Assembly (NCBI GenBank): GCA_045594605.1
Contig: JAZNYU010000163.1
Location: forward strand, 1 to 48,647
Length of the DNA: 48,647 nt
From: Eubacteriales bacterium
Lineage (GTDB): Bacteria > Bacillota > Clostridia > Oscillospirales > CAG-272
Direction of reading: 5' to 3'
Of the stretch, positions 1-29,322 are shown piece after piece. The stretch's first letter is position 1. Every line of letters begins with the position of its first letter. A program made the translations under genes and the position numbers. The notes beneath the pieces are model-generated. The model was not told the DNA's origin and did no database searches. It was given only the letters and a program-made list of their open reading frames with translations.

Positions 1-429
1 GGTTACTCCCGTCAAAGAATCGCCGAGCAGCTCAACGAGCTGGTTGAGATTCTGGATGCGAGAATTTCCATGGAGCTCATCGCCGACGGCGAATGGAACC
101 CCGAAGAAATTCGTGTTCGTCCCATCGTAACAGAGAATGGCATCATCTTCCAAGGCGATCACGTATGCGAGAGCAAGTGTGACACTTGCGGCAAGTGTCT
201 GGATAAGACCTGCACAATGGACGCATGCAAGGAGAAGTGCCAAGGTCACAAGACCGAGACTCCCAAGGGTGACGAAAACAAGGAATTTGACACTAAGGGC
301 GCTATCATCGTAGCCATCGTTGCAGGCGTTGTTCTCATTGGCACGGGCGTTGCTCTGGCAATCGTCTTTACCAAAAAGAAGAAGCCCCAAGAAAAGAAAG
401 AAACCAAAGAAGAACCCGAACAAAACTAA
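1..429 (+). CDS. 3' end of a CDS entering from the left edge: Cys-rich surface protein fragment with C-terminal transmembrane anchor
   Basis: Frame 1 is open from base 1 (GYSRQRIAEQ...) to TAA 427-429. It has a 7-Cys cassette HVCESKCDTCGKCLDKTCTMDACKEKCQGH (nt 160-249), then a hydrophobic helix AIIVAIVAGVVLIGTGVALAIVF followed by a KKKK / Lys-Glu-rich tail. Confidence 0.65.
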   Translation, partial: GYSRQRIAEQLNELVEILDARISMELIADGEWNPEEIRVRPIVTENGIIFQGDHVCESKCDTCGKCLDKTCTMDACKEKCQGHKTETPKGDENKEFDTKGAIIVAIVAGVVLIGTGVALAIVFTKKKKPQEKKETKEEPEQN

Positions 430-522
430 AAAGACCTTCCCAGATTGACTCACAAAGAAACCAATCGTATTTTTAGATGCGGAGCATCTCGAAATAAATA
501 AAAAAACAGGAGGCACACACAA

Positions 523-3204
523 ATGAAAATGTCAAGACTTTTGGCGATTATCGCAGTTGCTATGGCGCTTGTACTCACCTTTGCAGCATGTGATTTCTTC
601 AAACCGGATGACAATGAAACCACACCCCCCGCAAACAATCAGACGACACCCCCCGCAAACACAGAAACTACTCCTCCCGCAAACACAGAAACCACTCCCG
701 TTATCAGCGTAGTTCCCGAAACCGTTGAGATCCACGCAGGTGACGACATCGAGCTTATGTTCGGTGTAACCGTTACTGACGAGGGTGACGAGGCTCCCAC
801 ACTCATCATCGAAGACGACGACGGATTCGATGCGGACGTTGAAGGAACCTACACCATCACCTACAAGGCAGTTAACAAGTATGGCAAGACCGCTACCGCT
901 ACCCGTACGGTAAAGGTCCTCAAGGCTCTCTCCGCTCTCACTCTCGAGGTTAAGGCAAACAGACTCGGTGAGAACAAGTGGCAGGGCAACCTCCTTTCCT
1001 TTAAGAATAAGGAATTCGTAACCCTTTCCGGCGATTACGTATCTGACGTAGCTATCAGCGGCGTATTCTATAACGCAACCGAGGCTGCTGTTACCATCAA
1101 CATTGCAGGCAGCTACGGCGTAGCAGCTGTAATCGATGCAAACGGCTTTGTAGTTGAGGGCCGTGACGGCGCTAACTCCAAGCTCGTAAACGCTGCAAAC
1201 CCCGACAGAACCGCAAGTGCTGTAACCTCTCTTGAAATTAACGGCGAGACCGTTACCGTTGCAAGCGCATTTGCAAAGAACCTCACCGTTCCTGCAGGCG
1301 GCTATGCAATCGTTGTTCAAAACGGTTACTGCGGAACCACCGTTGACTCCGACGGCCGCGGCTTTATGAACTACAACGTTATTTACCAATACGGTAACAT
1401 TGTTCGCCTCCTTTGGGCTGATACCCAAGAGGTCCTCACTCCTTACGTAGACCAAGCTCCCGCTATCACCGGTCACAACAACAAGGTTCTTGCTAACCTG
1501 ACCGATGCAGAGTTTGATCTTGCTGTTGCAATCCTCGGCGGTCTTACCATCACCGACGATAACGGCACCTTCGATCCCTCCGACGACGTAGCAGTTGAAA
1601 TTACCGTTGCTGACAACGGTGGCTTTGACATCAACACTATCGGCGTTTACACCATCACCCTGACCGCAACCGACGGCACGAACACCACCACCGTTACCCG
1701 TCAGGTAGAGGTTGTTGACACTCTCGTCGAGCTCACCATTAACGGCAATTCCTACAAGACTCTTCCCGAAACCGTTGCAGTAGATACAGATGTTAACCCT
1801 CTGGGCAAATATCTCTTCCTTATCTTTACCCCTGCATACGAGGGCGAAATCACCCTTAGCAACGGCTACGGCGTAGCAATGGTACTCAATCAATATGGTC
1901 AGGTCGTTCGTATTTACGACGGTGCCAGCGGAAAGTACTTTGATGCTGAAAATGACGGCATCACCGGCGGTCCTTGCACAGCAGCAGGCTACCTCAAGGA
2001 AGCATTTGCATCCCTGCAAGACGGCGAGTACCTCATTGTAGCTCCCAACGGAAACGGTAATGTTGCACGTGGATTCTTCTACAGCAACCGTAAAGTAGGC
2101 GCACAAGTAACTCTTCCCGGCATCACTTTCCCCGAGGCTCCTGCTCATAAGTGCGAGCACGTTTGCGACGTATGCGGCAAGTGCCTTGATACAGGATGCG
2201 CAGAAGAAGTTTGCGCAGAAAAGTGCGTATGCGAACCCGACCATACTTGCGAGCACGTTTGCGAGTATTGCGGCAAGTGCGCCGATGCAGAATGTGCACA
2301 TTCCGTTTGCGCTGACAAGTGCGCAGGTCATGAAAACTCTAAGTTCATCTCTGTCAACGGTAAGACCTTTGAGGCAGTTGACGGCAAATGGGCATACAAC
2401 GTTGAGATCACCGACAAGACCGCAGCTAAGTACTCCATGATCATTCTTGACAAGAACTACAACGGCAACCTCTCCACCAACGGTTACGGTGCTGCAATCG
2501 TTCTTGACAGATACGGCAAGCTGATCAAGGTTTACGACGGTGCAAACCTCGGCTTCTACCAAGGTAACGGCAAAGAGACTGCTCACTTCACCACCTCCAA
2601 CTATGCAGTAGTAGCATGGAGTGAGCTTGGCGAAGGCGAGACTCTGATCATTTTCCCCAATGACGGTGGCGCAAACGCAGGCCGTGGCTTCGCTCTCGGT
2701 CTCCGCACCGACGGTTCCATCGGTCAAACCGCAACCCTGACCGGCTTCGAGTTTGAAGTTTACGTTCCCGACGACAAGACCATTGCTGTTAACGGCAAGG
2801 AATTCACTGCACTTGAAGGCAAGTGGGCATACAACGTTGAGATCACCGACAAGACTGCAGCTCAATACTCCATGATCATCCTCGACAAGAACTACACCGG
2901 CGACCTTTCTACCAACGGTTACGGTGCTGCAATCGTTCTGGATGCTTCCGGTAAGCTGATCAAGGTTTACGATGGCGCAAACCTCGGCTTCTACCAAGGC
3001 AACGGCAAAGAGACCGCTCACTTCACCACCGCTAACTATGCAGTAACTGCATGGGGCGAGCTCGGCGAAGGCGAGACCCTGATCATCTTCCCCAATGACG
3101 GCGGTGCAAACGCAGCTCGTGGCTTCGCTCTCGGTCTCCGCACCGACGGCTCCATTGGCCAGACTGCAACCCTCACAGGCTTTGATTTTGCAAAGGCTGA
3201 ATAA
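523..3204 (+). CDS. 893-aa multidomain surface lipoprotein (Ig-like DUF5011-type segments, four copies of an unassigned ~130-145-aa domain, double 7-Cys cassette)
   Basis: AGGAGG at 508-513 lies 9 nt before the ATG. Signal peptide with probable lipobox (LVLTFAA-C). TTPPAN linker. Ig-like segments GTYTITYKAVNKYGKTATATRTVKV and GVYTITLTATDGTNTTTVTRQVEV. Repeated core NGYGxAxVLxxxGxxxxxYDGA occurs four times. Cys cassette at nt 2146-2331. Confidence 0.85.
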   Translation: MKMSRLLAIIAVAMALVLTFAACDFFKPDDNETTPPANNQTTPPANTETTPPANTETTPVISVVPETVEIHAGDDIELMFGVTVTDEGDEAPTLIIEDDDGFDADVEGTYTITYKAVNKYGKTATATRTVKVLKALSALTLEVKANRLGENKWQGNLLSFKNKEFVTLSGDYVSDVAISGVFYNATEAAVTINIAGSYGVAAVIDANGFVVEGRDGANSKLVNAANPDRTASAVTSLEINGETVTVASAFAKNLTVPAGGYAIVVQNGYCGTTVDSDGRGFMNYNVIYQYGNIVRLLWADTQEVLTPYVDQAPAITGHNNKVLANLTDAEFDLAVAILGGLTITDDNGTFDPSDDVAVEITVADNGGFDINTIGVYTITLTATDGTNTTTVTRQVEVVDTLVELTINGNSYKTLPETVAVDTDVNPLGKYLFLIFTPAYEGEITLSNGYGVAMVLNQYGQVVRIYDGASGKYFDAENDGITGGPCTAAGYLKEAFASLQDGEYLIVAPNGNGNVARGFFYSNRKVGAQVTLPGITFPEAPAHKCEHVCDVCGKCLDTGCAEEVCAEKCVCEPDHTCEHVCEYCGKCADAECAHSVCADKCAGHENSKFISVNGKTFEAVDGKWAYNVEITDKTAAKYSMIILDKNYNGNLSTNGYGAAIVLDRYGKLIKVYDGANLGFYQGNGKETAHFTTSNYAVVAWSELGEGETLIIFPNDGGANAGRGFALGLRTDGSIGQTATLTGFEFEVYVPDDKTIAVNGKEFTALEGKWAYNVEITDKTAAQYSMIILDKNYTGDLSTNGYGAAIVLDASGKLIKVYDGANLGFYQGNGKETAHFTTANYAVTAWGELGEGETLIIFPNDGGANAARGFALGLRTDGSIGQTATLTGFDFAKAE
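616..699 (+). repeat. In-frame 24-bp tandem repeat (about 3.4 units) encoding (E/Q)TTPPAN(N/T) linker
   Basis: ETTPPANN QTTPPANT ETTPPANT ETTP is read directly from nt 616-699. It forms a low-complexity Pro/Thr spacer right after the lipobox. Confidence 0.8.
2341..3201 (+). repeat. Tandem in-frame duplication, 2 x ~435 bp (145-aa domain), inside the 893-aa lipoprotein gene
   Basis: Unit 1 (2341-2775) reads KFISVNGKTFEAVDGKWAYNVEITDKTAAKYSMIILDKNY... Unit 2 (2776-3201) reads KTIAVNGKEFTALEGKWAYNVEITDKTAAQYSMIILDKNY... The two are near-identical over most of their length at protein level. Confidence 0.9.
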
Positions 3205-3275
3205 TTCGCGTTACGCAAAAATGATCCAATAGTAGATTGATTTTTGAAGATCGATCTGTGAAAACAAGAAAAAAT

Positions 3276-3302
3276 GCTCCCATCACTTTTTGTGATGGGA
3301 GC
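3276..3302. other. Intercistronic 11-bp-stem hairpin between the 893-aa lipoprotein gene and the glycosidase gene
   Basis: GCTCCCATCAC-TTTTT-GTGATGGGAGC. An A-run precedes it but no T-run follows on the + strand, so it is a possible weak terminator or mRNA-stability element. Confidence 0.4.
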
Positions 3303-3323
3303 CAACGAAAAATGGAGAGCAAT

Positions 3324-4724
3324 ATGAAAAAGGTATTATCTTTCCTCACAATGGCAGTTGCCCTTGTGTTACTGACAGTCAGTTCGGTTTCCGCTTTTTC
3401 TGAGGGCGTGCTTGATACTCCCAATTTCAAGCTTGACAGAGATGGCTTCGTATACATCGAAAAGGAAACCAAAAACAACAATTTAGACCAAAAGATTTTT
3501 TACGGTGAGTACAATACCACCGGCAAGGATGCAAAGTACGAGTGGGTCATCCATAGCATCAGAGAAGGCTCCAATACCACTCTAACGAACGTAATGGATA
3601 TTGCCCGTGACTACGAGGCAAAAACAGGCCGCAAGGTTATGCTTGCAACCAACGGCGACTATTTTTATGCCACCGGCTCCAACGTTGATTCCTACGTTAA
3701 CAACGGCATCGTTATCAGCAAGGGCAACATGGCAAACAAAAACTGTATCGGCTTTGATAACAACGGAAAGGTTGTAGTTGGCAGAATGACAGAGGTAGAG
3801 ACCCGTCTTGTTGTTTCCACAAACAACGGCCAGATGCAACAGTTCGAAATAGATAAATACAATCAGCAACCCGCCGCAGGCGAGATCGCCATCTACAACG
3901 TCCCCGGTACTTACACCGTTACCAACGCAGGCGTTATGATCGTGAAGGCCTCCTCGGCAAACCTCAACCAGTATCCCGTCTGGGGTACCGATTACACTAT
4001 GACCGCCACCGGCGTTCATGCTACCAAGGAGTTTAAGCTCAACAGCGGACAGTACGCAGTCGTTTACACCGAAGAGGACAGTGCAACCTTTGCCAAGCAC
4101 GTCTTTGGCGAGGCAGTTGATCTGGTCGAGATCCCCGCAGGGCAGTATAAGGATTGCACGTGGGTCGTAGGCGGCTATGACGTTATTGTCAACAACTATC
4201 AGGTAAACACCAACTGCCACACCGATAACAGCGGCAACGCAAACGCTCCCCGCACCTTTATCGGCTTTAAAGAGGACGGCACCGGATTCCTTTGCGTAGT
4301 GGACGGACGTCAGCCCGGCTACTCCATCGGCATCACCGTTAACCAAGAGGCAGAGCTTGCAGCCGTTCTTGGCGCAAAGTACGCACTCGAGCTTGACGGC
4401 GGCGGATCCTCTACCGTGATCGTTCGTATCAACGACGAGCTCACCCTGCGCAACCAACCCTCCGACGGCTCTATGCGCCGCGTATCCAACGCGATCCTCC
4501 TTGTAGAAAAGGAAGTGGAAGAGGAAAGCGGCGAGGGCAACGAAGAGAATACCCCCGGCACCGACAACCCCGCAACCAAACCCGAAGAGAACGGCACAAC
4601 AGATTCTCCCGCACCCGACAACACCGAAAACACAAAGAAGCACAGTCCCTTTGTTCAATTCTTCGTTGACATCTGGGAAGCGATCGTGAACTTCTTTAAA
4701 AAGTTATTTTCCCCAAAGTCGTAA
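3324..4724 (+). CDS. Secreted phosphodiester glycosidase family protein (NAGPA / DUF2233-like)
   Basis: Start chosen at ATG 3324 (GGAG at 3315-3318) rather than the track start 3237. Signal peptide MKKVLSFLTMAVALVLLTVSSVSA. Motifs ATNGDYF, RTFIGFKEDGTGFLCVVDGRQPGYSIGIT and ALELDGGGSSTV. Acidic low-complexity tail and amphipathic C-terminus. Confidence 0.8.
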   Translation: MKKVLSFLTMAVALVLLTVSSVSAFSEGVLDTPNFKLDRDGFVYIEKETKNNNLDQKIFYGEYNTTGKDAKYEWVIHSIREGSNTTLTNVMDIARDYEAKTGRKVMLATNGDYFYATGSNVDSYVNNGIVISKGNMANKNCIGFDNNGKVVVGRMTEVETRLVVSTNNGQMQQFEIDKYNQQPAAGEIAIYNVPGTYTVTNAGVMIVKASSANLNQYPVWGTDYTMTATGVHATKEFKLNSGQYAVVYTEEDSATFAKHVFGEAVDLVEIPAGQYKDCTWVVGGYDVIVNNYQVNTNCHTDNSGNANAPRTFIGFKEDGTGFLCVVDGRQPGYSIGITVNQEAELAAVLGAKYALELDGGGSSTVIVRINDELTLRNQPSDGSMRRVSNAILLVEKEVEEESGEGNEENTPGTDNPATKPEENGTTDSPAPDNTENTKKHSPFVQFFVDIWEAIVNFFKKLFSPKS

Positions 4725-4764
4725 TTTAGTTAGCAATAACAATAAATAAAAAAAGGAGAACATC

Positions 4765-6351: not shown

Positions 6352-6370
6352 TCCTTTTAAGGAGTAGAAT

Positions 6371-8196: not shown

Positions 8197-8197
8197 T

Positions 8198-9070: not shown

Positions 9071-9114
9071 TAAAACACCAAACACGACACAACGATAAGA
9101 ACAAAAGATTTGAA

Positions 9115-10719: not shown

Positions 10720-10726
10720 CAAATAA

Positions 10727-10767: not shown

Positions 10768-10769
10768 GC

Positions 10770-15700: not shown

Positions 15701-18700
15701 AAGACTGATGAAAAACATCGTGGCTACCGTAACCTTCAGAAGCTACGATTGGAAGCCCATCGGCGGCTCTTCCTTCGACGACACGAGCGTTGGCTACGAG
15801 GGTGTGTTTGACGGTCAAGGATACACCATTGCCTTGTTCCCTCAGGCTATGACTCCCGAGCATGACAACGCAGTGCTTGGTCTGTTCGGCACTCTGAAAT
15901 CGGGTGCTGTCGTTAAGAACCTTTCTATTTCTAACCGTCAGGATAATTACCTTTCCAGCAAGGGCACGACCTATTCCTATGACGGTGAGTACACGGTCTA
16001 CTTTGGCCTGATCGCGGGCAGAGTGCTGAGCGGCGCAACCGTTTCCGACTGTCGCGTTGCCAACGGCTCCGTCTCCATCTCCAACGGTACTCTGGGTGCC
16101 ATTGTCGGCATTAACTACGGCACGGTGAAAAACTGCGTTTCCTACGGCATGACGCTCACAGGCCCTGAGGGCAGAGTTGGCGGCATCGTGGGTGACTACA
16201 ACGGCGGAACGGTCGTCAACTGCTTCACCACCTACACAAGCATTGGCTCTACCGCAGAGGGATTCGTTGGTACTTCCACCGGCTCTGAGGCAGGCATCAG
16301 CGAGGCAAGAATGGCATCGGGCGAGATCACGCACAAGATGAATGTTTACGCAGGCGCGGATGTTTGGTACCAAGAGATCGGCATTGGCGGACCCTTGATG
16401 AATAGCGAGAGCGATTACGTTGGAAAGATCGTTTACCTGCACAACTTTGGCGCGATCACCCTCTACTCCAACAAAACAAATGAATTCACCCTTTTGCAAG
16501 ATTTTGAGATCAAGAGCGGAAAGACGCTTACCATTCCCCAAAAGATGACCCTGATCGTTCCCGAGGGCGTTACCTTGACAAACAACGGCACGCTCATCAA
16601 GAACGGTACGCTGAAGGGCGAGGGAACACTAGACGGTCTTGGCAACTTCTACATGACCGAGATCGATCGCGATCTGATTCCCACTATCGGCGACATCGTT
16701 TATGATGGCAACGATCACACCAATGACGTTGATATCGCCGTAAGCGCAGTATTCTCGGCATTGGGCAAGACCTTTACTCCAAAGGGATATACCTTCCATA
16801 AAAACTTTACAAACGTGAAGGATGCAGGATATTACGAGATCGGATACGTTTTGGGAGCCGAAGAATATCTTGTCAGATTTAACGTAACTCCCTTGGCGGT
16901 TTCCAATGACAATGTTTCTTTGGAATACACCGAGGTGTTCTACAATGGCACCGAGCAGCAACCCGTCGCTCTTCTTGCGGGATTTGAGGTCAGCCTTGGC
17001 AAGGACTATTATATAACCTATGAGAACAACAAATCTGCCGGCACGGCAACTGCAACAGTCACCTTCCGCGGCAACTTCTCGGGAGAGTTCACAAAAGAAT
17101 TCACCATCAAGTCTGTTGTCATCGGCACCGAAGCGATTGCCGAGGCACCCGAGAGCATCGTCTTCAGCGGTCTGGAGCTGGATCCTGTAACGATTACCGT
17201 TGATGGCGTTCGACTTGTTCGTGACGTAGACTACACCGTAACCTACGAGAACAACGTTTACCCCGGCACCGCTACGGCAACGGTGGTTGGTATCGGTTCG
17301 GTTTCGGGCGAGGCAAGCTTCACCTTTGAGATCACCAAGCCCGCCTTCACCGTTACCGTGCTCGATCAGATACTCCCCTACAACGAGGATATCAACGTCA
17401 AGCCCTTTGACCACACGATGTACGAGGGGGAGGGTCTTGTTGAAGGACATACCGTAGTACTCGGTGAGCCTTTGATTTCCGGCGATACCGATGAAATGAT
17501 CACTGTTCTGCAAATTCTGGATGCCAACGGCATTGACGTTCTGGAATATTACGACATCACCGTTCTTGCCACCGGCAAGTACCATATGTTCTATGATGCG
17601 TATGTTTGGGACAACGACGGTTATCACTGGCGCAATTGCGCATACAACTGCGACGAAAAGGCAGATTACGAGAAGCACCACGGCGGCGTTGTAAGCTGCT
17701 CCGAGGACGGTAGCTGCATTGACTGCGGTCTGACTTACCTCTTTGCTACGGGCGAGCACAACTACGTCAACGGTGTTTGCGGCTGCGGCTTCGATCCCGA
17801 GTTCGTATTTGTAGTAGATACCGACAACAACGGTCAGCACAGCGGCTCCGAGACCGGTTTTTCGGCAAACGGAATCCACAACATCTTCTACTATCCTGAC
17901 AATCAGTACGTGGTTGTAAAGGACTTTGCAGGCGATTTTTCCGGCGTGGGGCAGAATGACACCACCGTTATCCTTGACTTGCGCGGTCACACCATTGATA
18001 TGACCGATGCACTGTATCCCTTCTCCATGCAGGCACAAAACCTCGTTGTCATCTTTAAGAGCACGACAGAGGAAATGGGCGTTCTGATCGGAGCTACCCA
18101 ACTGGCAGTTGATTCTGTTACCTTTACACTCGATAACATTCGTCACGAGGGCACTCTCTACAATATGGGCACGATCCACGTTATCAACGGCTCGCTCCTG
18201 TATTCTGAGATCACCAACCGCGGCACCATCTATCTCCCCGAGGGATACGATCTTTCTACCTTTGTTTCCTACACGGGTAGCGGAACGCTTTACGTTGGCG
18301 AAAAGGCGTTTGTTTACAACGCCGAGAGCGGCAAGCTCGAGTGCGCATCCGATCACGATTGGGTAGATGCTGACTGCACGAACGCAAAGTATTGCTCCAT
18401 TTGTGAAAAGATCGACGGTGAGCCTCTCGGCCACAGCACAAGCGGCCCTGCAACCTGCGAAGAGGATGAGGTCTGCACAGTTTGCTCCGCTATCGTCAAC
18501 GAAAAGCTCGGTCACACCGAGGAAGAGATTCCCGCAGTTGAGCCCGGATGCGATACCGTCGGCTCTACTGTAGGCAGCAAATGCACAACCTGCGGCGAGT
18601 TTATCATCACTCCCGACGTGCTTCCCGCACGCGGACACACCGAGGCTTCTCCCGTGATCGAAAACGTGGTCAACAACGGTTGTGATGCTCCCGGCAGCTA

Positions 18701-21038
18701 CGAGGTCGTCGTTTACTGTACGGCATGCGATTACGTGTTCTCGAGAGAGACTATTCACACCGACGTGATCGGTCACAACGAGACCACCACAAGATACGAC
18801 TACAAGGACCCCACCTGCCAAGAGGAAGGCTACGTGGTTTACAGATACACCTGCACCGTGTGCGGTGAATACCGTGATAGCGAAAGAATCACCCTCGAGG
18901 CAACCGGTCACACCCCCGGTGAGTCCTATATCTCCAGCAGCATGGATCCTTCCTGCACGTATGAGGGATATGTTACAACCATCACGCCGTGCGCAAATTG
19001 CAGCGAGAACGTGGAAGAGAAGAAGGAGATCATTCCCAAACTTCCGCACACTCCCAACATCGATGCCCCCACTTGCACCCAAGAGCAGTCCTGCACGGTC
19101 TGCTACGCATTGATCGAGACCTTCGCTCCTCATGCCTACGTAGATACCGTAATCGAGGCACAGTGTCTTAACAGCGGTGGCATCCACCACGAATGCAGCC
19201 ATTGCGGCTCCAGCTATTTTGAGGTCACGCAAGAGGCGCTCGGTCACTCCTACAACATCGAGGCAGCTACCTGCGAGGAAGATAAGTATTGCCTGCGTTG
19301 CGACGTCATTGATGAATACGCAACCGGACACGAGGATGTTTGGGCAACCTGCACCACTCCTCACTACTGCGCTACCTGCGAAAAGGTCCTCTCTCCCGCT
19401 ACGGGACACGTCTTTAACGCAGAGGATGCTCCTACCTGCACAACCGAAAAATACTGTATCTCCTGCGGTCATGTAGAAGCAGAGGCACTCGGTCACGATC
19501 CCGATAAGGAAGCGCCCACCTGCGACGAGCCCGTATATTGCACAAGATGTCCTGCACTTCTGGAACATGCAATCGGCCATACCTATAACAATGAGGGCGG
19601 TGTTACCTGTACCGAGGATTACTACTGTACGACCTGTGGCGAAATATTCGGATACGCACGCGGACACGTACCGATGTTCGGTGACGTACAGTGCGAGGTC
19701 GACAACACCTGCATCAATTGCGGATTTGTAGTGGCGGAGGCAGCCGGTCACGCTTATGAGGCTGCAATACTCAGAGAGGTGAGCTGCCAAGCCGATGGTA
19801 TAATCTCTTACACCTGCCAAAGATGCTATTACTCCTACGAGGAATATCAGCCTCAACTGGAGCACGATCTCGTCAAGCAGGATGACGTTCCTTCTACCTG
19901 CACCCAGCAAGGACACACAGGCGCTACGGTCTGCTCTTTGTGCGGCCAGGTATTCGCTGCCGAAACAGTCCTGCCGTTTGCAGAGCACAAAGACCTTGAC
20001 GGCGACGAGCTTTGCGACGTGTGCGGCATTGACTTGAGTGTCGCTCATGATTGCGTGGACGGCGATAACAATCACAAATGCGACGTTTGCGATGCAACGC
20101 TTACCGTTCACGAGGTTACCGATGGCAAGCACACCTGCCTCTATTGCGGCGAGCGTGCAAGCGATTGCGAACAAAACGAATTTGGTTACTGTGACATCTG
20201 TCAGGTCAAGATCATCGGTCAAAGCGTTCACCTTAGCTCCGGCATCTCCATGCGCTACTTCGTTCAGGTGATCGATCCCAGCCTCATCGAAGGCAAGACT
20301 GTGACCATGGAATTCCACTTTATGGGCGACGTAAGAACCGTTGAGGGCGATTTCCTTAGTGAGACCTATATCCTGTTCTGCTTTGAGGGTATTGCTCCCG
20401 AGTATATGGGAGAGAACATCGATGCGTACCTCCTCATCGACGGTCAAAGAGTGGCTTCCAAGCTCTCCTACAGTGTTAAGACGAACCTGACCAATCTTCT
20501 TGCAAAGAATGCAAACGACGCGACATTGGTTCAACTGATCAACGATACCCTTGCTTACGGTGCGGCGGCACAAAAGGCAAAGAATTACAATGCAGATGCT
20601 CCCGTTACCGATGGCGTAGAGGGATTTGCACCTTCGCAAAACGTTCCCACCGAGCAAACGGTTGTTGAAAACAACACCGATGAGACGGCAAAGATCGAGT
20701 CCTATGAGGTCGTTGTAGGCAAGGTTGCTTACTTCCGCTTTGCCATCAAGCTTGCAACCTTTGATGGCATTACCATCCGCGTAAACGGAGAAGAGATCAG
20801 CCTTGACCACCTTGTTGTCAAGGGCGGCGGAGACTACGTGCTTTTGAGTGAGGGACTTATCATGGGTCTGGATTCTCCCGATTTCACCGTTGAGATCCTC
20901 AAGGACGGTGTCAGCGTTTCCAAGGTTGCAACCGGCATTGGCGCATTCGCCAATGAAGCGGCTTCGACCGAACAGAAGGATCTCATGCTTGCTATCTACA
21001 ATCTGCTGGCGTCGGCTCAAGCATATTTGTGGGGATAA
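12702..21038 (+). CDS. 2778-aa secreted giant surface protein: three GLUG-motif beta-helix-like regions, MBG/Ig-like repeats, long His/Cys module array, unassigned C-terminal domain
   Basis: RBS AGAAAGG at 12686-12692. Signal peptide MMRKMNVKMAILSLLMAMIMLVGVIAGASKMTEASA. The pattern Y(Y/F)xIxxxxxLxxF...FDGxG(Y/H)xISG(I/L)Y occurs three times, with GLUG-like GGIVG/GGIAG/GGISG/GGITG turns. YDGN / ITYENN...GTATATV MBG-like repeats. No LPXTG, SLH or C-terminal TM seen. Confidence 0.9.
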   Translation: MMRKMNVKMAILSLLMAMIMLVGVIAGASKMTEASAAEIPALPATEYVSPQSPTQPVPYDGVPVTPGKISSSNYRTYGLTDDNWSQYNGYYAIRNAKELYGFAELVRATQSPKQNAVLLADIVVNTEVSLENGATYTWTHMVKNPGHSAYIDGYGGTFDGNGYSISGIYSPSEKTNWGIFGSISGTGVVKNLVLKNSLFTAFGSAAPIAGYNYGLVSSCRIESSVMIYRDKTSGSGASGITEIRHTTETVDASNQTFTGGIENCFSNVTFNIFKNNYANLNNSGVITAKMPIRTKVNNNYGIESDGFRLIGELSTDVEGKWTTLKTQNDAHTCIPITHNQVNGTCYSSGLSAYTFCAVCEKVLSGEKTVLYGHTSDEFFYTQNKNDELKHDKRYLCCTEIAETTDHTYSNEACSLCGYEMFARMGDYASTKAKNLVITSDVTVEGDDHLHVSSGYTLTVNPGVTLTVNSNLYNAGTIINNGAIIVKGAYSGEGTVTCGETATYHPAFNENGFCQFCGDEDHPQVAPLVDGYYQIGNAGQLMWFSNFVGEGNTSANAKLVADIVFNEGDLSGLNGKTEGYRFWTPIGMIMNHENGVDSFVTYTGTFDGDGHFISGLYHFDYWSYDGYAGLFSKLGAGGVIKNVTVKNSYIATSRLAGAILGENRGGTVENCHNVNTTVASAARVGGIVGSNTSGIIKYCTNDGNVKFFMVNPDLAFGFTEFGGIAGSTAGTIEFCTNYSDIISADEIGDVGGISGQVYHGIVRNCVNEGNINVTDGTNFGGITGYQYHGTLTRNINYGTITGSGNLVGGVIGNPLGNGGRYTHNYTVGGSACGPVSRDGCYSITAAELANGRLAFELGIGQEIGVDARPTVGGPAVYAYFNESGVVNYTNDANYICYHAGGTATCDARAVCDGCRNPYGDIPEGAHQFEITGREDKPNCTVCGGRCGVVAPHNTNYTDYCAVCGDWIGPELAEDGFYEIKTFGNLMWFAEEVNAGNYGLNARLMKNIVATVTFRSYDWKPIGGSSFDDTSVGYEGVFDGQGYTIALFPQAMTPEHDNAVLGLFGTLKSGAVVKNLSISNRQDNYLSSKGTTYSYDGEYTVYFGLIAGRVLSGATVSDCRVANGSVSISNGTLGAIVGINYGTVKNCVSYGMTLTGPEGRVGGIVGDYNGGTVVNCFTTYTSIGSTAEGFVGTSTGSEAGISEARMASGEITHKMNVYAGADVWYQEIGIGGPLMNSESDYVGKIVYLHNFGAITLYSNKTNEFTLLQDFEIKSGKTLTIPQKMTLIVPEGVTLTNNGTLIKNGTLKGEGTLDGLGNFYMTEIDRDLIPTIGDIVYDGNDHTNDVDIAVSAVFSALGKTFTPKGYTFHKNFTNVKDAGYYEIGYVLGAEEYLVRFNVTPLAVSNDNVSLEYTEVFYNGTEQQPVALLAGFEVSLGKDYYITYENNKSAGTATATVTFRGNFSGEFTKEFTIKSVVIGTEAIAEAPESIVFSGLELDPVTITVDGVRLVRDVDYTVTYENNVYPGTATATVVGIGSVSGEASFTFEITKPAFTVTVLDQILPYNEDINVKPFDHTMYEGEGLVEGHTVVLGEPLISGDTDEMITVLQILDANGIDVLEYYDITVLATGKYHMFYDAYVWDNDGYHWRNCAYNCDEKADYEKHHGGVVSCSEDGSCIDCGLTYLFATGEHNYVNGVCGCGFDPEFVFVVDTDNNGQHSGSETGFSANGIHNIFYYPDNQYVVVKDFAGDFSGVGQNDTTVILDLRGHTIDMTDALYPFSMQAQNLVVIFKSTTEEMGVLIGATQLAVDSVTFTLDNIRHEGTLYNMGTIHVINGSLLYSEITNRGTIYLPEGYDLSTFVSYTGSGTLYVGEKAFVYNAESGKLECASDHDWVDADCTNAKYCSICEKIDGEPLGHSTSGPATCEEDEVCTVCSAIVNEKLGHTEEEIPAVEPGCDTVGSTVGSKCTTCGEFIITPDVLPARGHTEASPVIENVVNNGCDAPGSYEVVVYCTACDYVFSRETIHTDVIGHNETTTRYDYKDPTCQEEGYVVYRYTCTVCGEYRDSERITLEATGHTPGESYISSSMDPSCTYEGYVTTITPCANCSENVEEKKEIIPKLPHTPNIDAPTCTQEQSCTVCYALIETFAPHAYVDTVIEAQCLNSGGIHHECSHCGSSYFEVTQEALGHSYNIEAATCEEDKYCLRCDVIDEYATGHEDVWATCTTPHYCATCEKVLSPATGHVFNAEDAPTCTTEKYCISCGHVEAEALGHDPDKEAPTCDEPVYCTRCPALLEHAIGHTYNNEGGVTCTEDYYCTTCGEIFGYARGHVPMFGDVQCEVDNTCINCGFVVAEAAGHAYEAAILREVSCQADGIISYTCQRCYYSYEEYQPQLEHDLVKQDDVPSTCTQQGHTGATVCSLCGQVFAAETVLPFAEHKDLDGDELCDVCGIDLSVAHDCVDGDNNHKCDVCDATLTVHEVTDGKHTCLYCGERASDCEQNEFGYCDICQVKIIGQSVHLSSGISMRYFVQVIDPSLIEGKTVTMEFHFMGDVRTVEGDFLSETYILFCFEGIAPEYMGENIDAYLLIDGQRVASKLSYSVKTNLTNLLAKNANDATLVQLINDTLAYGAAAQKAKNYNADAPVTDGVEGFAPSQNVPTEQTVVENNTDETAKIESYEVVVGKVAYFRFAIKLATFDGITIRVNGEEISLDHLVVKGGGDYVLLSEGLIMGLDSPDFTVEILKDGVSVSKVATGIGAFANEAASTEQKDLMLAIYNLLASAQAYLWG
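18342..20201 (+). repeat. Protein-level array of about 20 His/Cys modules (C-x5-C-x2-C and C-x9-11-C-x2-C, mostly ending in GH) inside the giant gene
   Basis: Hand count of 20 CxxC motifs (CSIC, CTVC, CTTC, CTAC, CTVC, CANC, CTVC, CSHC, CLRC, CATC, CISC, CTRC, CTTC, CINC, CQRC, CSLC, CDVC, CDVC, CLYC, CDIC). Most are preceded by a single Cys at fixed spacing and flanked by (L/T/R)GH. Confidence 0.85.
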
Positions 21039-21050
21039 GAAAGGCTGAAG

Positions 21051-21093
21051 ATAGGCTGTCATTTTGACGGCAACCGTTTTGGTGACAGCCTAT
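21051..21093 (+). other. Intercistronic compound hairpin between the giant gene and the 304-aa lipoprotein gene
   Basis: ATAGGCTGTCA...TGACAGCCTAT with an inner ACGG-CAA-CCGT stem. No U-tract follows. Confidence 0.5.
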
Positions 21094-21131
21094 TCAAACA
21101 ACAAAAATAATAACGAAATAAAGGTGAAAAT

Positions 21132-22046
21132 ATGAAAAAATCAATCTTAATACTTACATTTTCCATATTGATCGTTGCTTTGTGCGCCTTTCTCGGTTCT
21201 TGTAAGAGCGAGTGTGTTCACACGTATGACAACGCTTGCGACACCGCCTGCAACCTGTGTGGTGAAACTCGCGCGGTATCGCACGATATGACAGATGCGA
21301 CCTGCGACACCCCCGCCACCTGCAAGGTGTGCGGCAAAGCAGGGGATGCGGCGCTCGGCCACAAGTGGGCAGAGGCAACCTGCGAAAAGGCTGCAACCTG
21401 CAGAGCCTGCGGCAAAACCAACGGCGAAGCACTCGGTCACAAATGGACAGATGCAACCTGCACCACTCCCAAGACCTGCGGCACTTGCGGCGAGACCGAA
21501 GGCGAAGCACTTGGTCACAAATGGACAGATGCGACCTGCACCACTCCCAAGACCTGCGGTGTTTGTGGTGAGACCGAGGGCGAAGCACTCGGCCACAAGT
21601 GGGATAACGCAAGCTGCACCGCATCCAAGACCTGTGGCGTTTGCGGCGAGACCGAAGGCGCTGCGGCAGGGCACGATTGGGTAGATGCAACCTGTACCGC
21701 TCCCAAGACCTGTGATACTTGCGGCGAGACCGAAGGCGAAGCGCTTGGTCACGAGTGGACAGATGCTACCTGCACTGCTCCCAAGACCTGTGGCGTTTGC
21801 GGTGAGAGCGAGGGTGACGCACTGCCTCACACTCCCGATGCCGATGACGGCGACTGCACAACGGCTGTTCACTGTTCCGCCTGCGGCGACGTTCTGAAGA
21901 ACGCTACCGACGGACACATTGACTCCGATGAGAGCGGACTGTGTGACCGTGAGGGATGCAACCAAACGGTTGAATCCAGTATTGAAGAAGAAACCGAGCC
22001 CGGCAGTGGCGGCGGGTTCGACTTCCCAATGGATGAAAACCCCTAA
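21132..22046 (+). CDS. 304-aa lipoprotein consisting almost entirely of 26-aa His/Trp/Cys repeat modules
   Basis: RBS AAAGGTGAAAATATG. Lipobox CAFLGS-C. The module HKWTDATCTTPKTCGxCGETEGEALG is repeated. Acidic C-terminal tail. Confidence 0.85.
   Translation: MKKSILILTFSILIVALCAFLGSCKSECVHTYDNACDTACNLCGETRAVSHDMTDATCDTPATCKVCGKAGDAALGHKWAEATCEKAATCRACGKTNGEALGHKWTDATCTTPKTCGTCGETEGEALGHKWTDATCTTPKTCGVCGETEGEALGHKWDNASCTASKTCGVCGETEGAAAGHDWVDATCTAPKTCDTCGETEGEALGHEWTDATCTAPKTCGVCGESEGDALPHTPDADDGDCTTAVHCSACGDVLKNATDGHIDSDESGLCDREGCNQTVESSIEEETEPGSGGGFDFPMDENP
21282..21827 (+). repeat. 7 x 78-bp in-frame tandem repeat (26-aa module H-x-W-x3-C-x5-C-x2-C-G-x7-G)
   Basis: Unit starts (CAC His codons) are at 21360, 21438, 21516, 21594, 21672 and 21750, preceded by a more divergent unit at 21282. 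The period is exactly 78 bp. Confidence 0.9.
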
Positions 22047-22058
22047 AGCTATCAATAA

Positions 22059-22095
22059 AAAAGAGGGGCTGCTCGGTTGAGCAGCCCTTCTTTTA
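22059..22095 (+). terminator. Rho-independent terminator ending the giant-gene/lipoprotein operon
   Basis: AAGAGGGGCTGCTC-GGTT-GAGCAGCCCTTCTT followed by TTTT. Confidence 0.85.
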
Positions 22096-22174
22096 TTGGG
22101 TTCTTTGCGGTTGAGAATATTTCTTTGCCACGTTGTCTCTCGACAAAAACAACGCCTTTCCGCTTGATATTTAC

Positions 22175-22203
22175 TTGACATAGAGCAAAAAATATGATAG
22201 AAT
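22175..22203 (+). promoter_or_regulatory. Sigma-A promoter for malQ-glgP
   Basis: TTGACA (22175-22180), 17-nt spacer, TGa-TAGAAT (22198-22203). Confidence 0.7.
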
Positions 22204-22247
22204 ATTAGAGTGACTGTTTAAAATACAATGCAAAGGGGAATTAGAGA

Positions 22248-23777: not shown

Positions 23778-23807
23778 TTCATCGCAAAGCAAAGGAACTT
23801 GATAACT

Positions 23808-26117: not shown

Positions 26118-26133
26118 AAAAAGAACCGCAAAA

Positions 26134-26164
26134 AGCGCCCATCCACCGATGGGCGCTCTTTTTG
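26134..26164 (+). terminator. Rho-independent terminator after glgP
   Basis: AGCGCCCATC-CACC-GATGGGCGCT followed by CTTTTT. Confidence 0.85.
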
Positions 26165-26194
26165 CGTGCAATAACAAAATAGGGAAGAGAAACA

Positions 26195-26229
26195 AACAAA
26201 AAAGGAACCACACCCGAGGGTGTGGTTCC
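26195..26229 (-). terminator. Rho-independent terminator for the minus-strand 1007-aa lipoprotein gene
   Basis: On the minus strand, GGAACCACAC..GTGTGGTTCC is followed by TTTTTTGTTTG. Confidence 0.8.
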
Positions 26230-26298
26230 TGAAATTAACCGGGATTATAGCAATATGCAAGTTGCTTTTGCGTTGTTAATTTTAATCAGTGTTTAAAA

Positions 26299-29200
26299 TC
26301 AAGCGACGGGTTGGTAAACAACCTCGATAGCCATAACACGAACCTGCTTGCCGTTAGAACCATTCTTCACGGAGTTAAGAACTACGGAAGAACCGGAAAC
26401 AGTAATGGAGGTATTGCAGATATCGGTAGTAGTGCCATCAACATAGAGGAAAGCATAGGTGCCGGTTGCGGTAGTAATCTTAATGGAAACCAGCTCATAA
26501 CCATCTGCAACACTAATCGTAATGGTTCCTGCAGGAGAGTCGGTAGCATAAATACGAATATGGTCGCCATTGTATGCCTTACCGGTGTTGGAGCCGCCAT
26601 TGATCTTAACACTTACGTTTTCATCAAGATTGAATGTTTGCTTTGTGGTGGAGGATGTCCAACCATATTCGGTAATCAGATCTGCAACAGTCTTGCTTGC
26701 AGTAATGGTCTCTACGCCTTGAATTGCGCCGCAAGAGCAAACGCCGTTAACATAGGTATGATCAATGGGTTCGCCAACTACTGCGCCGCAAACTTTGCAT
26801 GTAGCTGCCTCGGTGCAGGTTGCTTCGGTGAAGTTCGAGCAGGTGTGTGTGCCGGTGATTTCAGCAGTTGCGCCTGCTGCAATTTGGCGAGCACCACTAT
26901 AAGTGTCCATCGAACCTACAACGGTGATAACATCGTTCAAGCTAACCTTAGTGGAAAGTCTGAAGAGGTAAAGAGAAGTGCCGTTTTCATCGGTGATGGT
27001 AACAGAGATGTTATTGTATTGATCACTCCAAGCGGTGTTGATCTTGGTGACGGTACCTGTTACACGAACCATTGTGCCATCTTCAGCTTCGAGTGCTTCA
27101 GAAATCGTGTAGTCGTAAATAACATCATAGCTTGCATCGTGACCGGTAACGGTAGCGGTTGCACCTTGTGCAATTTGTCTGTTGCCATTGTAGGTAGCCA
27201 TAGTACCTTCAATGGTAACGATATCACCAAGGGCAACGTTAGTTGCAAGTCTGTAGATGTAAAGCTCGTCGCCGTTTTCATCGATGACGGTAACAGTAAT
27301 GTTCTTGTAGGTGGTATTCCAAGCGGTGTTGATTTCGGAAACGGTACCGCTGATGGAAACCTTTTTGCCATCCACAGCTTCGAGAGCTTCGGAAATAGTC
27401 ATTTCAAAGTAGTGGTTGGGATCGTCCTTGCCGCAGGTTTCGCAAACGTAATCAACGTAACTGTGGCCGAGAGCAGCGATTTCTTCTTGCTCTACAAGGG
27501 TTTGTTCACAAACGGAGCAGTAAGAACCGTCGGTAAGACCGTCTTCGGTGCAGGTAGCTGCCTTGCCGGGAACAACAACTGTGGTGTGTCCGAAAGCAGG
27601 GATCTCAACATAGGTGGTGTAGTTGCAACGGGTGCAAGCTTCGTATGCTTCGTGACCAGCCTCGGTGCAGGTAGGAGCCTTTGCTTCGTATGTTACTTTA
27701 TCGTGGCCGAGAGCGGGAACTACTTCTTGAGCGGTAAGGATATCGCCGCAAACAGAGCACTTAACACCAGCGGTAAGACCGGTTTCGGTGCAAGTGGGAG
27801 CAACTGCGGGAATTTCTTCTTCGGTGTGACCAAGAGCGGGGATTTCTTGATAGGTGGAGAAATCGCAACGAGTGCACTTTACGTACATATTGTGGCCTGC
27901 TTCTGTGCAAGTAGGATCCTTCTTAGGATGGATCGTAGAAGTATCATGGCCGAGAGCGAGGACGATTTCCTGTTCTACGAAGATCTTGCCACAAACGGAG
28001 CAGTGCTCGCCGGCAGTAAGACCTGTCGTTGTACAAGTAGGCTCTACAGCTGCAAGAGGTGCGTGAGTGTGGTCAATAACGGGAGTTTCTTGTTGTGCTA
28101 CGAGAACTTCGCCGCAAACGGAGCAGTGCTTACCTTCGGTAAGACCTGTCTTGGTGCAGGTAGCGGGAACTGCTGCGTCAATAGCCTCTGTATGTCCGGT
28201 AGCAGGAACGGTTTGTTGTGCTACTTTACCTACGGAGCAACGAGTGCAGTGTCTACCCTCTGTAAGACCGGTTTCGGTACAGGTAGGAGCAACAGCCTCA
28301 TCAATTACGAAATCGTGACCGAGCGGGAGGATCATCTCTTTCTTTACGATGACTTCACCACAAACGGAGCAGTAGGAATGCTTGTTATAACCGGGAGTAG
28401 TACAGGTAGCAAGCTTCATCTTTACTTCAACAACGGTGTGACCAAGAGCCTCAACGGTTTCTTGTGCTACGAAAACTTCGCCACAAGCGGAGCAGTGAGA
28501 GCCTTCGGTAAGACCGGTTTCGGTACAAGTGGGAGCTACAGCTGCATCAACAACGGTGGTGTGACCGAGAGCTGCAACAACTTCCTGTTCCTTGGTGGTT
28601 ACGCCACAAACGGAGCAGTAAGCGCCTTCGGTAAGACCGGCTTCGGTGCAGGTGGGAGCTACGGCGTCAACAACAACGTTGGTGTGGCCGTTTGCAGGAA
28701 TGGTTTGGGGAGCTGCAAGAACCTTGCCACAGTCAAGGCAGTATTCGCCTGCGGTAACACCTTCGGTGGTGCAGGTGGGTTCTACTGCTACAACGGTGTA
28801 GGTAGTGTGGCCGTGAGCCTTAACGGGGGTTTGTGCGATGATAACAGTCTCGCAAACAGAGCAGTGAACGCCTTCGCTGAGACCGTCTTCGGTGCAGGTG
28901 GGCTCTACGGGAGCGTCAACAACGACGGTGTGGCCGAGAGCGGGAACCTTTTCTTGTGCAAGCAGAGTCTTGTTGCAAACCGAGCAGTGAACGCCTGCAG
29001 TCAGGCCCTTTTCGGTGCAAGTGGGAGCTACAGCTGCATCAACAGCCTCGGTGTGGCCGAGTGCTTCGATTACTTCTTGTGCTACGAGAACTTCTTTGCA
29101 CCTGGAGCAATGTTGGCCTTCGGTACGACCGGATTTTGTACAAGTGGGAGCAATTGCTTCATCAACCACAGGAATGTGGCTGCATTTCAGCGGGTTGTTT

Positions 29201-29322
29201 CCTTCGGGACCCCAGATGCTGACGGGGGGGATATCTTCAAAGAGGATATCGCACGATGCCAGTGTCAGCAGAATCAGTGCCGTAAGGGATGCCAAAACGA
29301 GTAATTTGAGAATCTTTTTCAT
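26299..29322 (-). CDS. 1007-aa surface lipoprotein: 14 x 41-aa His/Cys modules, two OB-fold-like domains, one short Cys module, unassigned C-terminal domain
   Basis: RBS GGAGGG. Lipobox LLTLAS-C. Modules such as HTEAVDAAVAPTCTEKGLTAGVHCSVCNKTLLAQEKVPALG. Duplicated segment TISEALEA.DG..V...GTV..INTAW...Y.NI.VT..DENG..LY..RL.T.V.L.D..T..G.M.TY.G.RQIA.GATA. Confidence 0.85.
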   Translation of the reverse strand: MKKILKLLVLASLTALILLTLASCDILFEDIPPVSIWGPEGNNPLKCSHIPVVDEAIAPTCTKSGRTEGQHCSRCKEVLVAQEVIEALGHTEAVDAAVAPTCTEKGLTAGVHCSVCNKTLLAQEKVPALGHTVVVDAPVEPTCTEDGLSEGVHCSVCETVIIAQTPVKAHGHTTYTVVAVEPTCTTEGVTAGEYCLDCGKVLAAPQTIPANGHTNVVVDAVAPTCTEAGLTEGAYCSVCGVTTKEQEVVAALGHTTVVDAAVAPTCTETGLTEGSHCSACGEVFVAQETVEALGHTVVEVKMKLATCTTPGYNKHSYCSVCGEVIVKKEMILPLGHDFVIDEAVAPTCTETGLTEGRHCTRCSVGKVAQQTVPATGHTEAIDAAVPATCTKTGLTEGKHCSVCGEVLVAQQETPVIDHTHAPLAAVEPTCTTTGLTAGEHCSVCGKIFVEQEIVLALGHDTSTIHPKKDPTCTEAGHNMYVKCTRCDFSTYQEIPALGHTEEEIPAVAPTCTETGLTAGVKCSVCGDILTAQEVVPALGHDKVTYEAKAPTCTEAGHEAYEACTRCNYTTYVEIPAFGHTTVVVPGKAATCTEDGLTDGSYCSVCEQTLVEQEEIAALGHSYVDYVCETCGKDDPNHYFEMTISEALEAVDGKKVSISGTVSEINTAWNTTYKNITVTVIDENGDELYIYRLATNVALGDIVTIEGTMATYNGNRQIAQGATATVTGHDASYDVIYDYTISEALEAEDGTMVRVTGTVTKINTAWSDQYNNISVTITDENGTSLYLFRLSTKVSLNDVITVVGSMDTYSGARQIAAGATAEITGTHTCSNFTEATCTEAATCKVCGAVVGEPIDHTYVNGVCSCGAIQGVETITASKTVADLITEYGWTSSTTKQTFNLDENVSVKINGGSNTGKAYNGDHIRIYATDSPAGTITISVADGYELVSIKITTATGTYAFLYVDGTTTDICNTSITVSGSSVVLNSVKNGSNGKQVRVMAIEVVYQPVA
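27463..29178 (-). repeat. 14 tandem His/Cys modules (12 of exactly 41 aa / 123 bp, one of 40 and one of 39 aa)
   Basis: Module residues are H1, C13, C24, C27 and G41, counted by hand from His49 to His620. The boundary codons CAC at 29176-29178 and 27463-27465 were verified on the sequence. Confidence 0.85.

Follow-up and report, generated by a model that had tools for sequence, protein, structure and literature searches.

A widespread Cys/His module arrayed in exported proteins of gut and rumen Clostridia, and its candidate role as a metal-bound surface stalk

The phorbol-ester/DAG-binding C1 domain (PF00130) has two Cys3His zinc sites whose ligands are interleaved rather than contiguous in sequence, and the element C-x2-C-G is a typical metal-knuckle signature. 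The streptococcal Pht/HTP surface lipoproteins reportedly carry about five copies of HxxHxH triads within larger domains, have no Cys, and are said to act in metal homeostasis. The stalk repeats of periscope proteins and fibrillar adhesins, such as Big_2, DUF11 and G5/E repeats, are a known concept for surface proteins (PMC9210967). Here, we describe a Cys- and His-rich tandem module from a 48,647 nt contig of an Eubacteriales bacterium of the CAG-272 lineage (JAZNYU010000163.1, assembly GCA_045594605.1), the whole of which is referred to below as the window. Five exported carrier proteins, here named A to E, are encoded within positions 1-29322. The explanation that we favour overall, with somewhat better than even confidence, is that the module is a widespread tandem stalk unit in which Cys3His metal sites would interlock successive modules into a rod.

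Module spacing, array ends and candidate metal sites

All five carrier open reading frames (ORFs) and their Cys-rich modules, which had been recognized in an initial annotation of the sequence, were confirmed by translation. A regex census of the five proteins counted 22 short-type, 23 long-type and 4 other modules, about 49 in place of the approximately 45 first estimated. The module spacings originally given were right with the exception of the short module, a unit of 26 aa that starts H-x-W-x4-C rather than H-x-W-x3-C. The remainder of the window had been said to lack a comparable density of Cys, and the CxxC motifs bear this out, with 58 in the five carriers versus 3 in the other 22 ORFs of the window. 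A separate 267-aa ORF with a GTG start (Table 1) is 6 % Cys, has no CxxC and no Pfam match, and is probably spurious, or at least unusual; it is unrelated to the module family.

Across 240 homologues, we found 2407 modules at fixed spacing, a pattern far beyond chance. Each module can be written as a triplet of spacers, from the boundary His to the first Cys (C1), from C1 to the second Cys (C2), and from the third Cys (C3) to the next His. The short class (6,5,9) comprises 784 modules and the long class (11,10,14) comprises 903, with minor long variants such as (12, 9, 12), and between short and long forms every one of the three segments differs by exactly five residues. When the linker between consecutive modules was measured without using the His, flanking C1-C2 loops of (5,5) were accompanied by a 16-residue linker in 92 % of cases and loops of (10,10) by a 26-residue linker in 87 %, and the mixed junction (5,10) by a 21-residue linker with the His at 9+11. 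Since the flanking C1-C2 loops predict the length of the linker, the three segments between one His and the next are matched in length and together make up the module as a unit. The expected three Cys and boundary His per module were borne out in the same way: with modules detected from their Cys alone, the boundary His was present in 1617 of 1618 short linkers and 589 of 590 long linkers, and is as invariant as the Cys.

Alignment of 767 unique short with 667 unique long modules by hhalign placed C1, C2 and C3 in register (identity 38 %, P = 0.0045), with the extra residues of the long form falling into three five-residue blocks. Together with the interleaving of both forms in protein C, this register supports a single family. 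One fold with a variable hairpin insertion had been suggested for the two forms, and of that suggestion the common family stands, but a local insertion does not describe modules in which all three segments grow by five residues together.

Three Cys and one His that are invariant at fixed spacing are what a structural Cys3His site would present, and most likely hold one structural metal ion per junction; we consider it quite probable that the modules bind metal. Zn2+ would be the natural candidate, because the proteins cross the membrane unfolded, on signals that direct reading places in the Sec or lipoprotein type, without a twin-arginine motif. Of the two options initially offered, metal knuckles and disulfide-stapled β-hairpins, metal fits much better. 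In the disulfide version, intra- or inter-module bonds would stiffen the stalk with no metal, and the His would be structural only. Exported Cys-rich repeats of other organisms are usually disulfide-bonded, the long-module profile is weakly like Kazal inhibitors (E = 0.06, the best Kazal match among PDB profiles), and some homologues give EGF or Kazal fragments in Pfam. However, these matches to Kazal, EGF and the like are fragments that stay below threshold, the window proteins have no such Pfam match, and where a disulfide-rich repeat of the Kazal or EGF/laminin-EGF kind would combine an even number of Cys with an above-threshold match, the unit described here has three Cys. The 45 Cys of the E array are an odd number, which makes an all-disulfide structure impossible there. 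The His is as invariant as the Cys, the knuckle is of the C-x2-C-G form, and the lineages that supply the carriers are strict anaerobes of gut and rumen, all of which leaves the disulfide version improbable.

The two ends of the arrays depart from the regular pattern in different ways. In 118 of 318 arrays, the first His has an additional Cys no more than a few residues away, compared with 15 of 1974 internal boundaries, and such N-caps open the arrays of D and E and the main array of C (Table 1). Modules that lack C1 only are concentrated at the other end, where 73 short-type and 31 long-type examples occupy the last position, with only 1 and 7, respectively, at internal positions and 0 and 2 at the first. 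The closing units of D and E keep the His, C2 and C3 but not C1 (C-caps; Table 1), and many homologues close their array with a unit that matches the short module perfectly except for T, D, P, S, V, Y or F at the position of C1. Once the caps are counted, the 30 Cys and 10 boundary His of the D array make 10 Cys3His sites with no orphan ligand, a count that takes in every one of the 30 mature Cys outside the lipobox and 10 of the 11 His of the protein. The 45 Cys and 15 boundary His of the E array make 15 sites, and the isolated module of E (aa 826-865; 6 Cys, 2 His), which has both caps, makes two. Read together with the predicted structures, these sequence statistics suggest that each Cys3His site bridges two neighbours, with C1 contributed by module i, and the His, C2 and C3 by module i+1. 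Given that the sites bind metal, we hold this interlocked topology to be moderately probable. The three segments would then change by five residues together because all three span the same two sites, whereas a C1-C2 stretch that formed an independent excursion would leave the coordinated change without explanation.

Structures were predicted with AlphaFold2 for D, from a 41-sequence alignment, and for aa 1-641 of E, from 48 sequences. In D, the mean predicted local distance difference test score (pLDDT) of 10-residue blocks was 89-98, mostly 95-98, over aa 81-230; in E, the means of the module blocks were mostly 71-87, with a dip to 51-68 over aa 291-370. DSSP assigned three short strands to the short module of D, one just after the His, one ending at C2 and one starting three residues after C3. 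In the long module of E, the strand residues of every segment come in two runs, a lower one of 3-4 and an upper one of 1-2 (His+2 to +5 and His+8; C1+4 to +5 and C2-3 to C2; C3+3 to +5 and C3+9 to +10). In these models, C2-x2-C3-G is predicted to be a knuckle at the hairpin turn, with C1 in a loop at the far end. A three-stranded antiparallel meander with a kink fits the run lengths (4/4/3 lower, 1/2/2 upper), and the short module would correspond to its lower part only. To judge from the DSSP strings, His(i), C2(i) and C3(i) would lie at one end of such a meander, and C1(i) at the other, beside His(i+1).

The simplest reading of the motif, nevertheless, is one of independent beads, in which each module forms a Cys3His knuckle of its own from its own or the following His and its own C1, C2 and C3, with no shared ligands, and in which the long form has a β-hairpin excursion between C1 and C2, as the initial annotation proposed. 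The DSSP string EE--EEEE between C1 and C2 of the long modules is readable as such a hairpin; about 60 % of arrays are without recognizable caps, and some keep C1 yet end in a non-His boundary residue. On the other side, a string of beads offers no role for the additional Cys at the first His, yet this Cys is about 45-fold enriched there, and the loss of C1 alone is found in 104 last modules versus 10 elsewhere. A hairpin insertion needs no equal five-residue growth of the other two segments, and the run lengths fit a three-stranded meander better, as the strand ending at C2 would already be paired on both sides, with the knuckle hairpin on one and with strand a on the other. Independent beads therefore seem to us rather unlikely.

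In the interlocked arrangement that we prefer, the module would be a small three-stranded β-meander made of segments a (boundary His to C1), b (C1 to C2) and c (C3 to the following His), in which strands b and c would form a hairpin with the C2-x2-C3-G knuckle. C1 of module i would be the fourth ligand of a metal site whose other three ligands, the His, C2 and C3, belong to module i+1, and such sites would staple successive modules into a continuous rod. The rod would act as a stalk or spacer that, in the lipoproteins D and E, would start right behind the lipid anchor and carry distal domains outward.

Several observations weigh against this arrangement. A recognizable N-cap or C-cap is present in about 37-38 % of arrays only. 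Some arrays have Phe where the final His would be, or pass directly into another domain, and under the interlocked model such ends would leave orphan ligands unless the neighbouring domain supplies them. The terminal repeats of many repeat families degenerate for unrelated reasons, and the cap test on isolated single modules was noisy, with irregular arrays split by the segmentation, and was not used. The hhalign support for homology of the short and long forms is modest (P = 0.0045), and both the convergence of Cys and His and the junction-bridging topology rest on DSSP strings and sequence statistics. Lastly, the predicted template modelling scores (pTM) are low, and values of 0.49 for D and 0.26 for E do not establish the shape or the rigidity of a rod.

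Distribution and family status of the module

An exhaustive phmmer search with the D array against 1.84 billion cluster representatives returned 9048 matches at an E limit of 1e-3, 5485 at 1e-10 and 1283 at 1e-30; the matches reach 6716 aa, and one protein of 5478 aa has 39 matched stretches. In a word-indexed search, D had at least 5100 relatives and the E array at least 7915. The named sources of these relatives are metagenome-assembled genomes (MAGs) of Clostridia, Oscillospiraceae, Ruminococcus and Ruminococcaceae. Scanning species-representative genomes yielded 29 loci from gut and rumen MAGs, assigned to Christensenellales, Oscillospiraceae, Ruminococcus, Lachnospiraceae, Acutalibacteraceae, Anaeromassilibacillus and Clostridiaceae, together with one Erysipelotrichaceae MAG and one labelled ‘Mollicutes’. 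With thousands of carrier proteins across gut and rumen Clostridia, the module is not special to this locus. Relatives of E at 98 % identity, on metagenome contigs, keep its neighbourhood of amidohydrolase, MatE and type I phosphodiesterase genes (L030, 1-8067; L031, 1-4795), showing that the locus is stable across samples; a 180-aa fragment in the protein cluster of E is labelled ‘hypothetical protein’.

The modules of the five proteins have no family in Pfam-A (2025) or NCBIfam (2026). Searches of all PDB sequences by phmmer, with D and the E array as queries, gave nothing at E ≤ 1, and searches of PDB profiles gave weak matches only, to C2H2-finger arrays, rubredoxin and Kazal inhibitors. 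Foldseek found no fold relative for the AlphaFold2 model of D (best E 1.8), the weak local matches of which were enriched in RBR/IBR domains, TFIIB and ribosomal zinc ribbons. The E model gave 54 Foldseek matches at E ≤ 0.001, and among the matches listed the TM values were 0.04-0.09 and the root mean square deviations 47-96 Å; we rejected these as fold relatives, since they reflect the non-specific alignment of long or elongated all-β repeat proteins. Taken across the searches, nearly every weak local match is to a protein that binds zinc (C1, the A24 N-terminal domain, RBR/IBR, TFIIB and rubredoxin). A tblastn search of phage genomes gave no match, and full-text literature searches found no description of the module, although their coverage is incomplete and absence is not proof. 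The original description of the module family as unassigned holds against the current curated libraries, with no PDB relative by sequence, profile or Foldseek.

The modules might instead be divergent members of a known zinc domain, for example C1 (PF00130) or the A24 N-terminal zinc ribbon (PF06750). The whole-protein score of C1_1 is above the sequence cut-off in 22 of 41 homologues (best E = 4e-14), as is that of A24_N_bact in 9 of 48 (best 3.8e-25). However, a rescan showed that the scores add up over many repeats and that no single stretch passes either profile alone. Of the five short-module homologues examined, four have a C1_1 alignment limited to positions 1-19 to 1-21 of 53; the fifth, P0014, spans positions 1-51, but with only 29.6 bits against a cut-off of 26.5, and again no stretch passes alone. 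The A24_N_bact matches cover positions 25-47/50 of 84. The window proteins themselves are below the Pfam cut-offs, D scoring 21.2 bits against the 26.5 required for C1. We read these fragments as local sequence resemblance to zinc knuckles and not as family membership, and give the known-domain alternative very little credence.

The Pfam labels C1_1, A24_N_bact, DUF4907 and GDH_HM2 on homologues were rejected as summed fragment matches. Public and precomputed Pfam labels are false positives on P0003, P0004, P0007, P0046, P0122, P0127, P0130, P0150 and other homologues, with COQ7 and zf-Vps39_C also among the false labels on repeat proteins. Such labels arise because many sub-threshold fragment matches are summed over tandem modules. 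Public pipelines leave the module blank or mislabel it with summed fragments (C1, A24 N-terminal domain). At least 9,000 protein clusters from gut and rumen Clostridia contain the module, and we found no curated family or structure and no literature for it. Its definition as a family would help to annotate many surface proteins, now ‘hypothetical’, of important uncultured anaerobes.

Carrier proteins of the window

The carriers had been described as exported, and their N-terminal signals agree with that description: direct reading identified lipoboxes in B, D and E, a signal peptide in C and, at the C-terminus, a transmembrane segment in A, and AlphaFold2 placed a helix at residues 2-22 of D and 2-26 of E. 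The positions of the proteins, their module arrays and other features are collected in Table 1.

Table 1. Positions of the carrier proteins, module arrays and associated features in the window
Feature	Positions	Strand	Description	Basis
Protein A	1..429	+	Partial; 3′ end of an ORF entering from the left edge	Translation
A, 7-Cys cassette, aa 54-83	160..249	+	Membrane-adjacent; H-x-C-x3-C-x2-C-G-K-C-x4-C-x4-C-x3-C-x-G-H	
Protein B	523..3204	+	893-aa lipoprotein, lipobox ...TFAAC	Translation, Pfam
B, 24-bp tandem repeat	611..699	+	3.7 copies	
B, two tandem 7/8-Cys cassettes, aa 542-603	2146..2331	+		
B, ~140-aa domain, aa 606-748	2338..2766	+		
B, ~140-aa domain, aa 752-891	2776..3195	+		
NAGPA-type phosphodiester glycosidase gene	3237..4724		Directly downstream of B	
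Protein C	12702..21038	+	2778 aa, signal peptide, secreted giant protein	
C, N-terminal blocks, aa 1-1270	12702..16500	+	Three repeated blocks	
C, isolated module-like element, aa 338-372	13713..13817	+		
C, two irregular module-like elements, aa 898-962	15393..15587	+		
C, isolated short module, aa 1659-1696	17676..17789	+	Followed by cap H-x6-C-x-C-G	
C, main array, aa 1881-2510	18342..20231	+	~19 modules, short and long interleaved; opens C1881-x3-H1885	
Protein D	21132..22046	+	304-aa lipoprotein, lipobox LGSC, almost all module array	
D array, aa 28-276	21213..21959	+	N-cap C28-x-H30, 9 short modules, C-cap H262-x8-C271-x4-C276	
Protein E	26299..29322	-	1007-aa lipoprotein, lipobox LASC	
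E, isolated short module, aa 826-865	26728..26847	-	Both caps; H826-x-C828 ... C836, C842, C845 ... H855-x6-C862-x-C864-G	
E, two OB-fold-like domains, aa 640-830	~26850..27400	-	Tandem, ~95 aa each	
E array, aa 47-630	27433..29184	-	N-cap C47-x-H49, 14 long modules, C-cap H621-x5-C627-x2-C630-G	
267-aa ORF	39953..40756	-	GTG start	

The visible part of A consists of an extracellular region, a 7-Cys cassette, a C-terminal transmembrane anchor and a Lys-rich tail. Protein B contains a Thr/Pro linker, Ig-like domains (PF16403), repeated domains of ~140 aa and two 7-Cys cassettes. The linker (TTPPAN...), encoded by the 24-bp tandem repeat right behind the lipobox, is a typical flexible tether. 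Two copies of the ~140-aa domain are nearly identical and share the motif NGYGAAIVLD...GKLIKVYDGANLGFY...IIFPNDGGANA.RGFALG, with weaker, more divergent copies around aa 130-330 and 400-530; none of the copies has a Pfam match. The product of the NAGPA-type gene that follows B has, on reading, a similar ‘GYG...DGA’ flavour.

In the giant protein C, N-terminal blocks precede the main module array and a C-terminal region. The blocks start ‘...DG(Y/F)Y(E/Q)I...GNLMWF...’, and the second has a weak GLUG match that falls below the Pfam threshold (18.6 bits against a cut-off of 20.5). Cys-knuckle elements lie before or between the blocks at aa 345-358, 513-516 and 904-961, and ‘YDG...’ repeats at aa ~1280-1500 resemble, on reading, the MBG domain named for one homologue, with no profile match. 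In E, the array immediately follows the lipobox and is succeeded by the two OB-fold-like domains, the isolated short module and a C-terminal domain. The OB-like domains are weakly similar to the N-terminal region of the ExeM/NucH extracellular nuclease and to BOF/YgiW OB folds (E = 6e-5 to 1e-2), and may be a functional head displayed by the array.

The 7-Cys cassette of A and B, initially listed as a third format of the module family, could not be linked to it. The cassette had no relatives in the word-index search, did not occur in any of the 240 module homologues and had no Pfam or PDB match; local H-x-C and C-x3-C-x2-C-G elements are shared with the first module of D and with the caps. Nor can we uphold the proposal that the five genes are paralogues of a dedicated, expanding family. 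Only a promiscuous module is common to the carriers, and their other parts differ, with Ig-like and ~140-aa domains in B, the blocks with the weak GLUG match in C and OB-like domains in E. The genes between them are unrelated, include sugar-metabolism functions, and encode the NAGPA-type phosphodiester glycosidase, ABC sugar permeases, a ROK kinase, an FAD oxidoreductase, a LuxR-type regulator, GH77 and glycogen phosphorylase. Clustering of carriers is not the rule elsewhere, a second module-bearing ORF being present in 2 of 31 related loci within flanks of only 3-6 kb. Five carriers in 29 kb are notable, but short of a genome-wide count, we do not claim a dedicated cluster of paralogues.

Stalk role and relation to known systems

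The architectures of the homologues fit the stalk role that was first suggested for the arrays. Among 361 homologues starting with Met, 328 have an N-terminal hydrophobic segment, and of 145 homologues with a lipobox, 120 have an array that begins in the first 100 aa; the median length beyond the last array is 198 aa. The carriers are exported and anchored, and in E, as in the lipobox homologues, the tandem array stands between the anchor and distal functional domains. The fusion partners are diverse: polysaccharide deacetylase, SleB-type hydrolase, BspA leucine-rich repeats, cohesin, dockerin and SLH, as well as CAP, Big_2, DUF11, Listeria-Bacteroides repeats and pullulanase X25. The number of modules per protein ranges from 1 to about 100, and one protein examined has 102 detected by regex, so that array length varies about 100-fold within the family. 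A 7.4-kb stretch from a Clostridia MAG of roe-deer caecum (L004, 1-7365) is occupied by one ORF that runs through both ends and holds at least 38 modules. This combination of array position, range of module number and diversity of heads fits a spacer or stalk that would project functional domains from the membrane. Very roughly, and judging from the strand lengths, a short module may extend about 1.5 nm and a long module about 3 nm, which would give ~12-15 nm for D and ~40 nm for the E array, dimensions comparable with the Gram-positive envelope.

The sites could alternatively be functional rather than structural, and serve surface storage or sequestration of metal (Zn, Cu, Ni or Fe), or a redox relay, or the arrays could themselves be the adhesive part that binds a ligand. 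The sites are very dense, with 10 putative sites in about 250 aa of D and no other recognizable domain, and the streptococcal Pht proteins are a precedent for Zn-binding surface proteins. However, the modules are placed like spacers between the anchor and the head, and the enzymatic and binding heads to which they are fused are many and unrelated. A Cys3His site in which the protein supplies all four ligands is typically structural and inert to exchange, and no metal-transport genes adjoin the carriers. The signals have no twin-arginine motif, which argues against exported Fe-S clusters, and the estimated spacing of sites, about 1.5-3 nm, would be too long for efficient electron hopping. We consider a functional role of the sites improbable.

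Three further candidates were set aside. Binding of c-type haem was rejected on the motif, which is C-x2-C-G and not C-x2-C-H. Exported Fe-S clusters were rejected on the Sec or lipoprotein signals and the widely spaced sites, and such clusters or an electron relay are unlikely. A precursor of a ribosomally synthesized and post-translationally modified peptide was rejected because the proteins are large lipoproteins with no maturase nearby.

A bolder possibility, which we advance tentatively and with somewhat less than even confidence, is that the arrays represent a previously undescribed extracellular fold, in which mini-modules would be chained by Cys3His zinc sites, C1 of one with the His, C2 and C3 of the next, and the length of the rod would come in quanta as the three strands gain five residues each. 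If so, the display of surface enzymes and adhesins by thousands of Clostridia proteins would depend on extracellular zinc, with a bearing on how enzymes, cohesin/dockerin components and adhesins are projected through the wall. Junction-bridging sites, if real, would be an unusual architecture, a metal-stapled rod with an integrity dependent on zinc outside the cell, and might matter for the zinc ecology of the gut and for the engineering of rigid spacers of tunable length.

Among described systems, the C1 domain shares with the modules its Cys3His ligand sets, and its opening spacing, H-x12-C-x2-C, is identical to that of His...C2-x2-C3 in the short module, which is why the C1 fragment match at profile positions 1-19 recurs. 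In contrast to the modules, which are 26 or 41 aa long, open-ended, tandem, extracellular and bacterial, C1 is a closed 50-residue, two-zinc, intracellular, eukaryotic lipid-binding domain, and its full motif, H-x12-C-x2-C-x13/14-C-x2-C-x4-H-x2-C-x7-C over a profile of ~50 aa, is not found in them. Zinc ribbons and rubredoxin knuckles (the PilD/A24 N-terminal domain PF06750, TFIIB, rubredoxin) have a C-x2-C-G knuckle at the hairpin turn of a small antiparallel sheet of three strands, as predicted for the modules. A zinc ribbon, however, has two CxxC knuckles and one Cys4 site in one small domain, whereas each module has a single CxxC knuckle, a His and a distant single Cys; the knuckles of successive modules are 22 or 37 residues apart, and the site probably lies across two modules.

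On the side of surface proteins, the Pht/HTP proteins are Gram-positive surface lipoproteins with repeated zinc-binding motifs and in that respect resemble the carriers, but they use His triads without Cys in place of Cys3His, and no sequence relation was seen. The stalks of fibrillar adhesins and periscope proteins are closer in organization, as tandem arrays in exported, anchored proteins between anchor and head, and the highly variable copy number of the modules, from 1 to about 100, is another common feature. Known stalk domains are Ig-like or similar, of 70-100 aa and without metal sites, whereas the modules have 26 or 41 aa built around Cys3His. The DNA repeats, with periods of 78 bp in the D array (78 % identity) and 123 bp in the E array, are 74-78 % identical overall rather than near-identical, which argues against a rapidly length-switching ‘periscope’ array; a relative 98 % identical to E (P0121) is essentially the same length, at 1008 versus 1007 aa. 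We regard the module as a variation on zinc knuckles and on the stalk repeats of surface proteins and not as a new biological system, yet it represents a large, uncharacterized and structurally unusual family.

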